Source: Eledone cirrhosa
Taxonomy: Eukaryota
Direction: 5' to 3'
DNA: 64,000 bases
Assembly: GCA_964016885.1 (NCBI GenBank)
Contig: OZ024741.1
Location: 167,028,001 to 167,092,000, forward strand
Shown here: one piece after another, positions 11,624 to 55,380 of the stretch
Layout: every line of letters starts with the position of its first letter
Position numbering within the stretch: the stretch's first letter is position 1
Made by a program: the position numbers and the translations under genes
Notes under the pieces: generated by a model
Databases searched by the model: none
What the model saw: the letters and a program-made list of their open reading frames with translations, nothing else
Told to the model about the DNA's origin: nothing

Positions 11624-11659
11624 TCTTCTGAAGAAGGACTAGCATCCGAAACGTTAAGA
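11624..11659 (+). ncRNA. Minimal type-I hammerhead motif (family H1, copy 1)
   Basis: TCTT-CTGAAGA-A-GGA(CTAGCA)TCC-GAAA-CG-TT-AAGA. Confidence 0.6.
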
Positions 11660-12527
11660 CCCTCTTCCTGATATTTCAAGCGTTAACCTAATATACTCCT
11701 TCCATATACTGTACCGATTGAGTTGTTATTTTTGTTAACCTTTTACACACACACACACACACACACACACATATATATATATATATATATATATATATAT
11801 ATATATATATATGTGTGTGTGTGTGTGTGTGTGTGTGTGTGTGTGTGTGTGTGTCTGTGTGTGTGTGCGTATTAATTTATGTTTTGTGGTTCACCAATGG
11901 ACAGAACTGGTCATTCCGTTTAGTTAGCCATGATATAATAGTAGGAAAATCACTCTAACTTATGCAACTCACCCATCGTTGCTGTTATATATATATCTAT
12001 ATATATATATATATATATATATATATATTCGCTCACCCCCTCTGCTAATCACCTTCTCTCTGCTAGCCTGCCACTATAACTATCTCTTTCTCGCTTCCTC
12101 TTACTTTCACTCCCTCCCTCTCTGCTAGTCACCCTCTCTCCTCTAGCTCACTTCCTCCCTCGTCCGCCACTGCAAGCAGTCTCTTTTCTCGCTCACACTG
12201 CTTCAGTGAAGACGTGTCTGTTCTTTCTCGTCACACTCGTCAGGACTTATGTCCGAAAAAAGTTTGTTGACTTGATATTTTTCCTCTCTTTACGTTGCTT
12301 TACTTTTCGTGTGTGTTTACGTACTCCTTTCTCTCTCTCTCCCCCCTTTTATCCCAATAACTTATTTTAGTTATTGATCGCACTAGGTTGAGATATCTTG
12401 TCTCTAACGTGAAGAAATATCGATGATTCCTAGCAGACAACTAATGATGGATAATACCCTCTTTCGCCCGTAACTTTTTATTTTCATTATATATATATAT
12501 ATATATATATATATATTGTATTAATAT

Positions 12528-13020
12528 TTTACTCTTGATTGGCCAGAGGTGTTTATTTCCAGGTACCTTATAAATTTGACTTTCCGTATTTATTACTGTT
12601 GTGCGATATTGTGGTTTTATTGGTTGTGACTTCTGTTTTTTAGCCTAAGAAAATATATATATGCCTATGTATATAATTACATGCATACATTTATTATTAT
12701 TTTTTTTTATTAATTGAGTTCTTTACACGAGGAATTGATATTAGTTTTGAAATAACTAATTAACCCGCGTGTGTTTTATATTTTACTCTTAATTCAGCCG
12801 GAGATTTACATTCCCATTTGCCCTTTAAAGCATAACTTTCCGTATTTACTACGGTTACGAGATGCGGTTTCTTATTCAGGTACAACCTCTGATTTAGCCT
12901 AAGAAAATATCTATATGCGTGTGTAATTTATACAAGCATATATTTAAGTTTTTAATTTCAATTGAGTTCTTAACACGTTGGATTGATAATGTTTTCGAAA
13001 AACTGTTTAACCCGCGTGTA
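12528..13020. repeat. Degenerate tandem duplication, ~255-bp unit x2
   Basis: Shared blocks TTCCGTATTTA, TTAGCCTAAGAAAATAT, AATTGAGTTCTT, TTAACCCGCGTGT. Confidence 0.75.
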
Positions 13021-13024
13021 TATT

Positions 13025-13530
13025 ATTTTTTTCCTCCTTTCGTGGATCGTGGTTGTCTCCCCTTCCCGCTTAGTGACGCTATAATACTTCCTCAGTCAAA
13101 AACTGCTGGAATTTCAAATTTGCCGGTCACTCGATGCGGGAAGGAGCAACTTAACAGACACGATTTTTAACTACGGTAAGAACATTTTTTTTTCTTATAT
13201 CAAAGTTTAATGGGCTTCCACTGATGATTTATAAACGCCCACCTAAATATATTCTTACATGAATGTATATTAGGCTTCTACATAAACTGGAAATATTCTC
13301 CGAATTTGTAGAAAACTTATAATGGAACAATTGTTTGGAAAGAGAGATATATTTTAACTTTAATTATATCTCATAAAATAATACAACTGGCTTTTCCACA
13401 TAATACATATTGTTAGCACCCCAAACACTTAAATTGGGTTTATATTAAAATATAACCTAATGTTTGTTGAGTGAGATGGTTACCAGTCAGAGATTAGCTT
13501 TAAACTATCTCTGTTATTGTATTAATTATA
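13025..13530 (+). repeat. ~500-bp element, left member of an inverted pair
   Basis: Reverse complement of 16203-16708 with scattered substitutions; third partial copy at ~44600-44772. Confidence 0.9.
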
Positions 13531-13551
13531 TATATATATATATATAACATA

Positions 13552-13932
13552 ATATAAAACGAAAAATCAGTGATGCATCTGAACTCAATTTATTGTGTGT
13601 TACAATTGTTTCGCCGGCGGACAGCTCGAGACGCGATCATTGTGTGGATCTGTCTGATTCTGGACCCGCAGGTTCGACGGACACGTCTAATGATTTCGGA
13701 GCATATTCTCTCACTGGGAGCATATTCTTGGAGCATATTCTCTCACTTCGGAGCATATTCTCTCACTTAGTGAGAGAATATGCTCCGAAATCATTAGACG
13801 TGTCCGTCGAACCTGCGGGTCCAGAATCAGACAGATCCACACAATGATCGCGTCTCGAGCTGTCCGCCGGCGAAACGATTCTAACACACAATAAATTTAG
13901 TTCAGATGCATCACTGATTTTTCGTTTTATAT
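13552..13932. repeat. Fold-back with stuttered apex
   Basis: ~165-bp arms with a few mismatches; GGAGCATATTCTCTCACT repeated 3-4 times just before the turn at 13768. Confidence 0.93.
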
Positions 13933-52121: not shown

Positions 52122-52138
52122 GCTATATATATATATAT

Positions 52139-53210
52139 AAAATATGGATGAGAAGAGGGCTGTGTGTTTACTGATAACGGGTGTTAGAAGGTAAGGTCAC
52201 ACAAACAAGAGGTGGACAGTCTCCTTTCGTCATTAGTTAACTACGGGTCACATATGTTTCGGCGCATTATTAACTATATATCTATCCGTAGCGCGCCCAT
52301 AGCCTTTTATCTATCAAAAGGCCACGAAGGAGAGAAAGAAAAGAAGAAAAAAGAAAAAAATCCTACCGATAGAAGGGGGAACACGAGACAATGGTGCATG
52401 TAAGCAAGTAACCGAGAGAATGGAGATCAAGTTAAAAAATAGCCGTTGGGCTTAAGCCCGGGGTAAATAATAACGCAGCTAGGTATCCACACGTCTAACC
52501 TCAACGAAATCACAACAGAAAGAGAGAAAGACGGAGGAAACGGAAGTGAGAGAGAGTAGAGGGCAGAGTGGGTGAATGAGAGGGATAGAGAGAGAGAGGT
52601 GGAGGTGGAGGGAAAGGGAGTTAATCTAAACAGGTCTAGAACGCACGTGGACGACCAGGCGAGATCAATAGAGAGAGAGAGAGAGAGAGAGAGAGAGAGA
52701 GAGAGAGAGAGAGAGAGAGAGAGAGAGAGAGAGAGAGAGAGAAAGGGAAGGAGTTGATCGAAGGTGTGGCGATTAATGAATTCGCCAGACACAACGAATC
52801 GAGCGAGATAGGTAGAGAAGAGGGTGAGAAGGTTACAGCAGTAAATATAAAAAATATGGATGAGGCCTGTGTGGTTACTGATAACGGGTGTTAGAAGGTA
52901 AGGGGACCACAAACAAGAAGTAGACAGTCTCTCTTCGTCAGTACTTAACTACGGGTCACAGATGTTTCGGTGCATTATTAACTATGCATCTATCCGTAGC
53001 GCGCCCATAGCCGTTTATCTATCAAAAGGCCTTGGGGGAGAGAAAGAAAAGAAGAAAGAGAGAAGAATAAAAAGGAAAGAAAAGGGAAAAATAGGAAAAA
53101 AAGAAGAAAAAGGAAAAATAACCTACCGATAGAAGGGGGAACACGGGACAATGGTACATGTAAGCAAGTAACCGAGAGAATGGAGATCAAGTTTTAAAAA
53201 TGCCGTTGGG
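52139..53210. repeat. Direct repeat pair (~310/360 bp, period ~710 bp) next to (TA)n
   Basis: 52139-52449 matches 52849-53210. Confidence 0.85.
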
Positions 53211-54075
53211 TATATAATGCCAATCATTGTAAGTTTGAATCTGACATGCAAAAACATATATATATATGAATAAAGTAAGCCCAAATCATAGTAGATTCAA
53301 ATATCACAGAGAGAAAGAGCGACAGGGGGGGGGGAATGGGGTGCAACAGAAATGAAACATGGATTACAAGTTAAAATATAGTCTAGATAGATGAGAAACA
53401 AAAAGAGGATGTAGTTTATGGAATACCCAAATGATTTAGAAGTCGACCTTAAGTAGGAGCAATAACATTAAAAAAAGTCATGAATGACACCACAGGATTT
53501 TGTTTTGAAAATTTTGAAAGTAGGTTTATAAATATGAATTTTTATAAATCTTTCGTAATTGTCTCAGTGAACTAGCGGTAGGAGACGGGGGAGATCCTGG
53601 CCTTGGTTTCAATCCTGGTCATGAGGTGCATGTAATCTTTTTCATTTTTTTTTTTTTATATAGAAAAAACTGAAAATGTGTGAAATCCTTGGTACAATTA
53701 AGTATATTTGAAAAAAGGAAAAGTATACTTCACTTGTAGTTGGTATTCAAAACAATTTAATTTTATAATTTTACAATTTTGTAATATATATATACATACA
53801 GTGGCGGACTGGGTCTAAAATATTGGTTGCCGGGAGATGAAGGGGGGGGGGGGCACAGCTACATATAGAATGGTATACTTTTGTAGCTGTCTTCGGTGGC
53901 CTAGTTGGAGGAATCATAGACGGTGGTGGTCCTGGTCTGAAGTCCGATCATGGTCTGAAGTAGGGTTCCAGGTAAAACTTTTCAGCTTTTATTTTACTTC
54001 CCATAGAAAAAAAAACACACACACACACACACGCGCGCGCACACACACATGGGAAGTAAAATAAAAGCTGAAAAG

Positions 54076-54675
54076 ATGAATGTTCGGTAAACCCATACGT
54101 ACATATATACATGTGTGCATGTATGTATATATATATACATACTACTGTACGTCTGTATACATATATGTATGTACATATACATACTTAATTTTAAGTAACA
54201 GCCGTACTAAGAGTGAGAAATTAAATTTCGTTTCATTTTTTCCATTTATCGTTTTCGGTGCGCCCGGCCGACTAACTCACTCGATATGCAAATTAGGCTG
54301 CTCAGCCGTTAATATGCATAAGGAAAGTATATACTTTCAAACGTTCAATCGTCTGACAGGAAGGTATACGATGCTGACGATAGCCAATAAGCTTGAAACT
54401 AATTCATCGTTCCTTTGTCAGTGATGAACAAAAGGGCAACGATGGTTGCTGAACACTGTACGGCTTAAATCGGGCTGTTTGTTTACAAACAAACCGAACA
54501 TTATAATGAATATTCTGTAAACCCATACGTACATATATATATGTGTGCATGTATGTATATATATATACATACTACTGTACGTCTGTATACATATATGTAT
54601 GTACGTATACATACTTATATTTAAGTAACAGCCGTATTAAGAGTGAGAAATGAAATTTCGTTTCATTTTTTCCAT
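54076..54675 (+). mobile_element. Family H4 partial tandem (~1.4 monomers, period 430 bp) with hammerhead at 54368-54410
   Basis: 54076-54245 repeated at 54506-54675; ACGATG-CTGACGA...GAAA-CTAATT-CATCGT. Confidence 0.88.
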
Positions 54676-55344
54676 ATATATATATAAGTTTATTTTGAAA
54701 CAGCGAGCGAGTTTGAAATTAGAAGTAAAGAAATTTTAGCCTGATAGTGGGGTTTAGAACTCTCTAAGAAATGGAAAATGATGAGTATTAACGTACACAC
54801 ACACGCACGCACACACACACACACACACACACACACACACACACACACACACACACACACACACACACACACACACACACACACACACACACACACACAA
54901 CACACACACATATATATATATATATATATATATATATATATATATATATATATATATATATATATATATATATATCATATTAGGTATAACTCTAAGTTGT
55001 AGCTGCCATATAGCAGGTAATTTTTGAGTCGTTTGAGGCAATCACAAAGCACTCAATGGAGCGATATGTTAATTCATTATAGTCCAAAGTAAACACGACA
55101 GTTAAAAAGTGTGACACCAAGAAAAACGACCGAAGACTGTGGCCATACATATACCACAACAACGATAAATATAGAAAGGTTGAAAATTAACCTCGACCGT
55201 GTTTTGTTGATTAGAATCGATATAATCGATATATATATATATATACATATATGAGAAAGGTCAACAAGGAAAATTCAACACTAAAAACAATACGATACAA
55301 TGATTATATATATTTCTTTAACGCTTGGTATAATAGGAAAAATG

Positions 55345-55380
55345 TCTGAACGTTTCGGACGTTAGTCTATCGTCGGAAGA
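55345..55380 (-). ncRNA. Degenerate hammerhead (family H1, copy 3)
   Basis: TCTT-CCGACGA-T-AGAC(TAAC)GTCC-GAAA-CGTT-CAGA, with flanks homologous to 16990-17090. Confidence 0.45.

Follow-up and report, generated by a model that had tools for sequence, protein, structure and literature searches.

Hammerhead ribozyme motifs recur in short repeats within a 64,000-nt stretch of the Eledone cirrhosa genome (the window; contig C2 of a 3.0-Gb assembly, 38% GC, with dense (TA)n, (CA)n and (GA)n runs). We consider it probable, at roughly 0.86, that these motifs mark the 3′ termini of Penelope-like elements (PLEs) of several endonuclease-positive families, together with two non-coding tandem repeats that are likely retrozymes served by the same enzymes. 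The families are referred to below as H1 to H9.

Hammerhead folds and their conservation

An earlier reading of the window, made from its sequence alone, had listed 11 hammerhead-like motifs within repeats, and a hammerhead-like box does lie inside a repeat family at all 11 positions. Boxes alone are weak evidence, since the first box (CTGANGA) occurs 36 times in the window and 22 times on average in shuffled sequence. In the case of full folds, a strict type-I descriptor gave 3 matches versus a shuffle mean of 0.02 (maximum 1 in 100 shuffles), and a relaxed descriptor, which allows an extra nucleotide, U4C and a stem II of up to 110 nt and was composed after the motifs had been seen, gave 8 matches versus a mean of 0.24 (maximum 2 in 100 shuffles). 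Measured against shuffles, then, the earlier claim holds for full folds, which are real and above chance in the window, but only modestly for the first box.

Four of the eight relaxed matches are among the listed motifs (14825(+), 17022(+), 39622(-) and 46412(+)), and of these 39622(-) and 46412(+) are the two of the 11 that pass the strict scan as well. Three more belong to families that had been overlooked, namely H6 (match at 5121(-), partner at 5136(+), relative at 22556(+)), H7 (match at 16515(-), further copy at 13221(+)) and H8 (match at 48285(+)). The last, 38044(-), lacks family support and was taken as chance. Type-I hammerheads with CUGANGA, GAAA and UH boxes and stems I to III, at frequencies above chance, are thus found in 4 of the 11 listed motifs and in three new ones; the claim of full hammerheads stands for these four, the other seven being decayed, rearranged or mismatched. 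We regard the window hammerheads as candidate self-cleaving ribozymes. Note that H3 was at an early stage viewed as a non-hammerhead, a view overturned by the relaxed scan: its fold holds only with a distant GAAA, which gives an 81-nt stem II, and not with the near one. (The H3 box is U4C, a change reported to lower hammerhead activity in vitro in the work described in PMC3088659.) Free folding of seven motifs placed both stem I and stem II in the minimum-energy structure of H3, H4 and H8.

Using an anchor from the 3′ side of the H6-type hammerhead, with the first box left out, we obtained 86 matches in 15 clusters. The first box was at the right distance in 11 of the 15, and direct reading indicated that at least three of the four clusters without it are truncation or inversion junctions. 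Stem covariation around a conserved core, as expected of genuine hammerhead families, was found for the H6-type subfamilies: across 11 of them native stem II pairings were more stable than swapped ones (-6.3 versus -3.8 kcal/mol; 1 of 10,000 permutations, a figure that is not a strict probability because the subfamilies are kin). It was found also for the hairpin and palindrome of H7, where direct reading of the 995-nt and 740-nt forms revealed two compensatory pair changes in the stem II hairpin and a stem III palindrome that alternates between ACAATTGT and ACGATCGT.

PLE reading frames and insertion anatomy

First-look searches of the genome returned 1683 candidates for H1, 1234 for H2, 3298 for H3, 1959 for H4, 930 for H5, 1854 for H6, 1455 for H7 and 680 for H8, with 40 candidates scored per family, and 2034 for H9; the loci examined are the best-scoring matches, not random ones. 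One of them (L132) is a complete element, which comprises an inverted short end, an H6 end, an open reading frame (ORF) of 742 codons from its ATG, a 3′ region and a second H6 end; the H6 ends are 98.7% identical to window positions 4975-5128. The predicted structure of its protein (predicted local distance difference test score, pLDDT, 89.4) had telomerase reverse transcriptases as its top three fold-search matches (E 3.5e-9 to 6.7e-9). At E ≤1e-20 there were 338 homologues among 7996 scored candidates, and the best named protein match in the homologue search was from Argonauta hians (39%). Pfam did not recognise the intact 742-codon ORF and gave a sub-threshold reverse transcriptase (RT) match only on another locus (L011), and a PDB sequence search returned nothing meaningful. 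The H6 end is contiguous with an ORF that encodes a telomerase-like RT, recognised by fold search, as well as a GIY-YIG-type nuclease at the C-terminal end, recognised by motifs.

Other families, too, run into PLE frames. H5 continues into a frameshifted frame in 1 of 10 loci and H2 into the start of an ORF, the only part seen, in 1 of 25, while H1 lies downstream of RT/endonuclease coding DNA in 2 of 25 loci. A PLE frame precedes H3 in 1 of the 20 loci from the search and in 2 of the 6 regions fetched, and H8 in 4 of 4 such regions. Because H1, H2, H3 and H5 are contiguous with PLE frames elsewhere, their window copies appear to be 5′-truncated PLE ends and not separate non-autonomous elements; no short tandem arrays that would make them ORF-independent tandem units were present in the sampled loci. 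The sequence-only reading had been right to connect the motifs with PLEs and TA targeting, and the copies adjoining PLE ORFs that it proposed to look for were found for all four of these families. Its proposal of non-autonomous retroelements mobilised in trans fits H4 as a retrozyme, but for H1, H2, H3 and H5 ORF contiguity points instead to the ends of protein-coding PLEs. It had also seen no intact PLE RT or GIY-YIG ORF in the window, and our search of the 64 kb for PLE protein remnants likewise found none.

The RTs linked to H3, H5, H6 and H8 are 39-55% identical to one another and 24-28% identical to the H1-linked RT (that of H2 was not in the comparison), and H2 and H5 have a common 3′ tail. 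The translations carry the marks of the Hydra clade: an RWK-like motif (RWR in L132, RWK in L011), DKT, CxCx5C, CxxC/CxH around E and N, no CCHH, and TA targets. From these marks H2, H3, H5, H6 and H8 appear to belong to one clade, the Hydra-type PLEs, with H2 placed there by its ORF start and the shared tail; the assignment uses motifs from section 11 of PMC8557442. Contrary to the earlier claim, the families are accordingly not all unrelated, since H2, H3 and H5 are relatives. In the frame linked to H1 (the copy examined is broken), DKG and a Cx4CxxC linker are present and the GIY half is separated from the YIG half by a CxxC; H1 would by these features be a Neptune/Nematis-type PLE. A Nematis assignment entertained for H2, H5 and H6 was replaced by Hydra after the motif check, and the Naiad clade, which has an N-terminal endonuclease and no canonical hammerhead, was rejected because the nuclease here is C-terminal. 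Separately, positions 4830-6001 of L011 hold a third H2/H5-type subfamily, in which a CCGACGA (U4C) box is followed by a PLE frame.

H2, H3, H4, H5 and H6 each have two discrete 3′ ends. Two-armed loci, counted by hand with the arms facing outward, paired a long with a short end in 16 of 16 cases for H6 (25 loci), 15 of 15 for H2 (25 loci), 4 of 4 for H5 (10 loci) and 9 of 9 for H4 (25 loci); H3, whose query held both arms, and H8, whose reference contains simple repeats, were omitted. A pseudo-long terminal repeat (pLTR), an inverted truncated copy of it and a tail at one end are thus seen in the PLE families, except that no two-armed locus was found among 25 for H1. This arrangement has been described for PLEs (PMC8557442) and is explained by two RT start sites, which give the PLE tail, in PMC11167929, where AT-rich cleavage is also described. 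The adjacency to (TA)n that the earlier reading had noticed is borne out: ends meet (TA)n in 45 of 46 cases for H6, 43 of 50 for H3, 10 of 14 for H5, 24 of 41 for H2 and 12 of 25 for H1, far over the background of 0.09-0.13.

Retrozyme-like families and rival explanations

H4 and H7 are non-coding tandem units with one type-I hammerhead each and less than 50% GC, as in retrozymes. The H4 unit of about 430 nt (period 423-442 nt) lies inside the 150-450 nt given for retrozyme units and its RNA is strongly self-paired (z -6.7, 401 nt folded); its coding capacity was compared with PLE proteins and the window's list of frames only. H7, with a period of about 995 nt, lies outside that range and near the 972-nt maximum given in 10.64898/2026.07.22.740005. 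The H7 unit has a GC content of 0.31 and a folding z-score of -4.4 (20 shuffles). One array (L172-L173; G000:C21:35092000-35110000) contains 16 hammerhead-bearing units in 18 kb, and thus at least 16 in all, as its far end is beyond the fetched region; no ATG frame of at least 70 codons lies inside it. Dispersed H7 copies are about 99% identical, occur on many contigs and vary at the 5′ end, whereas in 14 of 15 loci (two of which are one insertion and one the window copy) they stop at the same 3′ position, next to (TA)n. The 995-nt form contains an internal duplication of 255 nt that is missing from a sister unit of about 740 nt. We considered H7 as a PLE end and rejected this, as the PLE frame beside H7 in one locus (L169) is set apart by (TA)n and another family's end; no PLE frame contiguous with H7 was found in 15 plus 25 loci and 3 fetched regions. 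H4 and H7 are likely non-LTR (non-long-terminal-repeat) retrozymes, which PLE enzymes would copy. In H9, the first box reads CCGTCGA in 11 of 11 aligned copies, the tail motif of H2 and H5 is also present, and no PLE frame was found in 15 loci.

One H4 locus of 25 (L046:900-2440; G000:C4:156909858-156913078) abuts PLE coding pieces. There, an H4 dimer meets a Hydra-type PLE on both sides in the opposite orientation and with no (TA)n spacer, the PLE start being on one side and an internal coding piece on the other; this may be a template-switch product, but is not decisive.

In the mechanism that we envisage, the PLE protein would nick (TA)n on both strands through its GIY-YIG domain, and PLE RNA would be reverse-transcribed, with priming from both strands, beginning at either of two fixed points that lie downstream of the hammerhead. 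Copying would mostly stop early and leave ends of 100-400 nt, and copying from both nicks would produce a head-to-head pair in which one end is long and the other short. Recognition in trans would extend to H4 and H7 RNAs and give partial tandems or arrays. Tandem transcripts would be cut into units by the hammerhead, acting as a dimer if stem III is palindromic and as a monomer in H5 and H2. Hammerhead cutting is probably dispensable for insertion: experiments in PMC11167929 show insertion by a lizard PLE in vitro without need for hammerhead cleavage, of nine frog retrozyme dimers assayed in 10.64898/2026.07.22.740005 eight stayed uncut, and H9 keeps a deviant box in all aligned copies, which together argue against a central role for cutting. 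A bolder version, which we hold only tentatively and think doubtful, is that Hydra-type PLEs carry a long-armed hammerhead (stem II of 80-100 nt, 8-nt palindromic stem III) that was taken over by the young 1-kb H7. The deviant cores retained by families that are young and of high copy number (U4C in H3, CCGUCGA in H9) would then mean that the fold is mainly a handle for the PLE protein and not a free-standing ribozyme. Such a variant, if true, escapes standard descriptors.

Several observations weigh against the reading of these repeats as PLE ends and retrozymes. Seven of the 11 motifs do not pass the relaxed scan: 11628 (H1) through a stem II mismatch, 55376(-) (H1 relative) as a decayed copy with a U4C box, 22919(-) and 54374(+) (H4) through a broken stem III palindrome, 14269(+) (H2) because its stem II lost the 5′ strand at the fold-back junction, and the further H2 members 14237(-) and 15107(-), the usual form of H2 having two mismatches at the base of stem II. 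Free folding of the seven motifs did not recover stems I and II jointly for H1, H5, H6 and H7, and folding z-scores are near zero for H1, H3 and H6. No Rfam hammerhead model reached its cut-off (best HH9, 16.1 bits versus 52), and among the best 150 of 376 rows the Rfam scan of the whole window gave microsatellite-driven microRNA matches, below cut-off. To these points may be added the kinship of the swap-test subfamilies, the choice of best-scoring loci and the few loci per family that link ends to frames. No two-armed H7 insertion was seen among 15 loci, and we found no PLE whose end is homologous to H4 or H7; their helper is accordingly proposed from the shape of the ends.

Of the alternatives, chance matches in AT-rich, palindrome-rich repeats carry next to no weight. 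Boxes alone are 1.6-fold over shuffles, 38044(-) is without family support and 4 of 15 H6-type clusters are without the first box; against this stand the excess of full folds and the 11 clusters in which a 3′-side anchor retrieved the first box at the right distance, with a covarying stem II, and the shuffle scans and the cluster and covariation test have already refuted the idea. It is quite improbable that all families are non-autonomous hammerhead mini-elements, retrozyme-like or SINE-like (SINE, short interspersed element), amplified in trans, with the ORF-linked copies as mere ancestors. Most sampled copies are indeed short, ORF-free and often fold-backs, ORF-linked copies make up just 1-2 of 10-25 loci for H1, H2 and H5, H4 and H7 do fit, and H9 is without a frame in its 15 loci. 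However, copies vary at the 5′ end but have a fixed 3′ end, those of H6 and H8 that are short match the ends of ORF-bearing elements at 98-100% identity, as truncation predicts, and single motifs had already been ascribed to truncated PLEs (PMC4209133).

For H4 and H7 alone, an origin as satellites or DNA-level repeats, spread by unequal crossing-over or by the machinery of another long interspersed element (LINE), with the hammerheads as relics, is unlikely, if a little less so. The array of at least 16 H7 units, the growth of the 740-nt into the 995-nt form by internal duplication and the uncut frog dimers would suit it. The 99%-identical H7 copies dispersed over many contigs, ragged at their 5′ ends but all with a single 3′ end, fixed at (TA)n, speak against it, as do the long/short scar that H4 shares with PLEs and the compensatory changes in the stem II hairpin and stem III palindrome of H7. 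The reading as PLE ends and PLE-copied retrozymes is the one that we prefer.

Window features and comparison with known systems

Table 1. Hammerhead-related features of the window (C3, position in the hammerhead core)
Feature	Positions	Strand	Remarks
H6 two-armed end, apparently of young Hydra-type PLE	4934..5228	.	Boxes 5121(-), 5136(+); both ends abut (TA)n, the long one on the left and the short one on the right; 98.7% to L132 ends
H1 copy, putative 3′ end of Neptune/Nematis-type PLE	11589..11744	+	C3 11628 in a minimal hammerhead; box followed by an extra A; palindrome ACGT; stem II with one mismatch
H7, one full 995-nt non-coding unit	12514..13526	+	Between two (TA)n runs; C3 13221; 94-nt stem II; GGAA replaces GAAA
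H9 fold-back, young family	13552..13990	.	3′ half resembles a hammerhead (GAAA, ACAATTGT palindrome); deviant first box CCGTCGA
H2 two-armed PLE end	14137..14428	.	Short arm - (C3 14237), long arm + (C3 14269, stem II rearranged at junction)
H3 two-armed end, putative Hydra-type PLE	14703..14985	.	Inverted tail 14703-14807 and sense arm; U4C; C3 14825; 81-nt stem II; ACAATTGT palindrome; GUC triplet
H2 relative, diverged and decayed	15014..15125	-	C3 15107
H7 5′-truncated copy	16206..16715	-	C3 16515; 3′ end as in other H7 copies
H1 copy, intact minimal hammerhead	16983..17140	+	C3 17022
H6-type end, decayed	22545..22651	+	C3 22556
H4 likely retrozyme, ~1.3 units of 430-nt repeat	22655..23210	-	C3 22919; stem III palindrome broken
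H3 second two-armed island	34679..34918	.	Truncated ahead of first box
H4 likely retrozyme, ~1.6 units	39296..40006	-	Intact hammerhead, C3 39622; U-U at stem II base; ACTAGT palindrome
H7 sister family (740-nt), 3′ end	44586..44772	-	Truncated downstream of hammerhead
H5 end, putative Hydra-type PLE	46290..46555	+	Complete monomeric type-I hammerhead, C3 46412; stems 7, 12, 3 bp
H8 end, putative very young Hydra-type PLE	48262..48470	+	C3 48285; 100-nt stem II; ACGATCGT palindrome
H4 likely retrozyme, ~1.4 units	54077..54680	+	C3 54374; broken palindrome in stem III; the long 3′ end abuts (TA)n
H1 relative, decayed	55309..55392	-	C3 55376; U4C box; stem I and II mismatches

Further repeats lie beside those of Table 1. 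The left part of 45170-45342 resembles, by eye, the sequence ahead of the Hydra-type ATG in L169, and is probably a PLE end. More TA-bounded islands or fold-backs are present at 14477-14683, 21084-21453, 21972-22310, 36448-36724, 37145-37263 and 45365-45502; some have only the GAAA-side half of a hammerhead, and they too are probably PLE ends. The window also holds two copies, 89-96% identical, of a broken Helitron with a PIF1 helicase (17368-20635 and 48745-51448), and broken LINE remnants with RT matches together with a Mariner-like transposase piece (7972-11400, 27507-28397 and 31297-33544). An abundant short family, often in partial tandems (3315-3497, 26311-26409, 38166-38474, 46571-46768, 57949-58508 and 60122-60743), resembles a tRNA-derived SINE.

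Much short unclassified repeat content of this genome is thereby resolved into PLE ends and retrozymes, and descriptors with short stem II limits undercount hammerheads. A matched set of an intact young PLE protein, its own ends and two candidate passenger RNAs with fixed ends is suited to testing the proposed, unproven mobilisation of animal retrozymes by PLEs, and the presence of the intact Hydra ORF in the same genome makes trans-mobilisation directly testable. In the literature, 235 Rfam hammerhead-1 loci have been reported for the giant squid (PMC6962438), and neither "hammerhead" nor "ribozyme" occurs in the main text of PMC13282606. We found no paper whose subject is PLE hammerheads or retrozymes of cephalopods, although supplements may hold such families, and supplementary file S2 of PMC8557442 may already show some.

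PLE hammerheads (PMC4209133), TA targeting by the Hydra clade (PMC8557442) and retrozymes of animals, for which a PLE origin has been proposed (PMC7229834; 10.64898/2026.07.22.740005), have all been published, and Hydra-clade PLEs are reported in molluscs (Craig et al. 2021, PMC8557442). The elements described here share with that clade a single ORF with RT followed by GIY-YIG, the RWK-like, DKT, CxCx5C linker and CxxC/CxH motifs, pLTR hammerheads, (TA)n targets, an inverted truncated pLTR and a tail at one end only. They differ in reaching up to about 3.9 kb between ends, versus generally <3 kb, and in tails of about 60-180 nt, versus 30-40 in the figure of PMC8557442, whose core descriptor (spacer ≤17 nt) would miss the 81-100-nt stem II arms of H3 and H8. 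The features of the H1-linked frame are those given there for Neptune/Nematis PLEs, and H1 resembles the minimal metazoan PLE hammerheads of Cervera and de la Pena (2014, PMC4209133) in its extra nucleotide between 9 and 10.1, G10.1-C11.1 pair, palindromic ACGT and 4-bp stem I. The same paper's pattern of many families per genome, mostly single and some on opposite strands 100-700 bp apart, is also found here. Unlike those minimal hammerheads, stem III is closed in H5 and H2, G10.1-C11.1 is missing from H2, H3 and H8, and U4C boxes occur.

H4 matches the non-LTR retrozymes of animals (Cervera and de la Pena 2020, PMC7229834; Li et al. 2026, 10.64898/2026.07.22.740005) as a 430-nt, AT-rich, self-paired, non-coding tandem unit with one type-I hammerhead, and its U-U at the base of stem II is as in axolotl HHR_Amex2 (PMC7229834). 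Like them, H4 coexists with PLEs. H7 has an H4-like plan in a unit of 995 nt, versus 150-450 nt (PMC7229834) and 51-972 nt (10.64898/2026.07.22.740005), and in its stem II of 94 nt and its palindrome of 8 nt it is similar to the Hydra-type hammerheads of H3 and H8. What is new is the family-by-family assignment, the intact young Hydra element, the long-armed hammerheads in PLE ends and the 1-kb retrozyme candidate; the system itself belongs to known kinds and is no new class of element.

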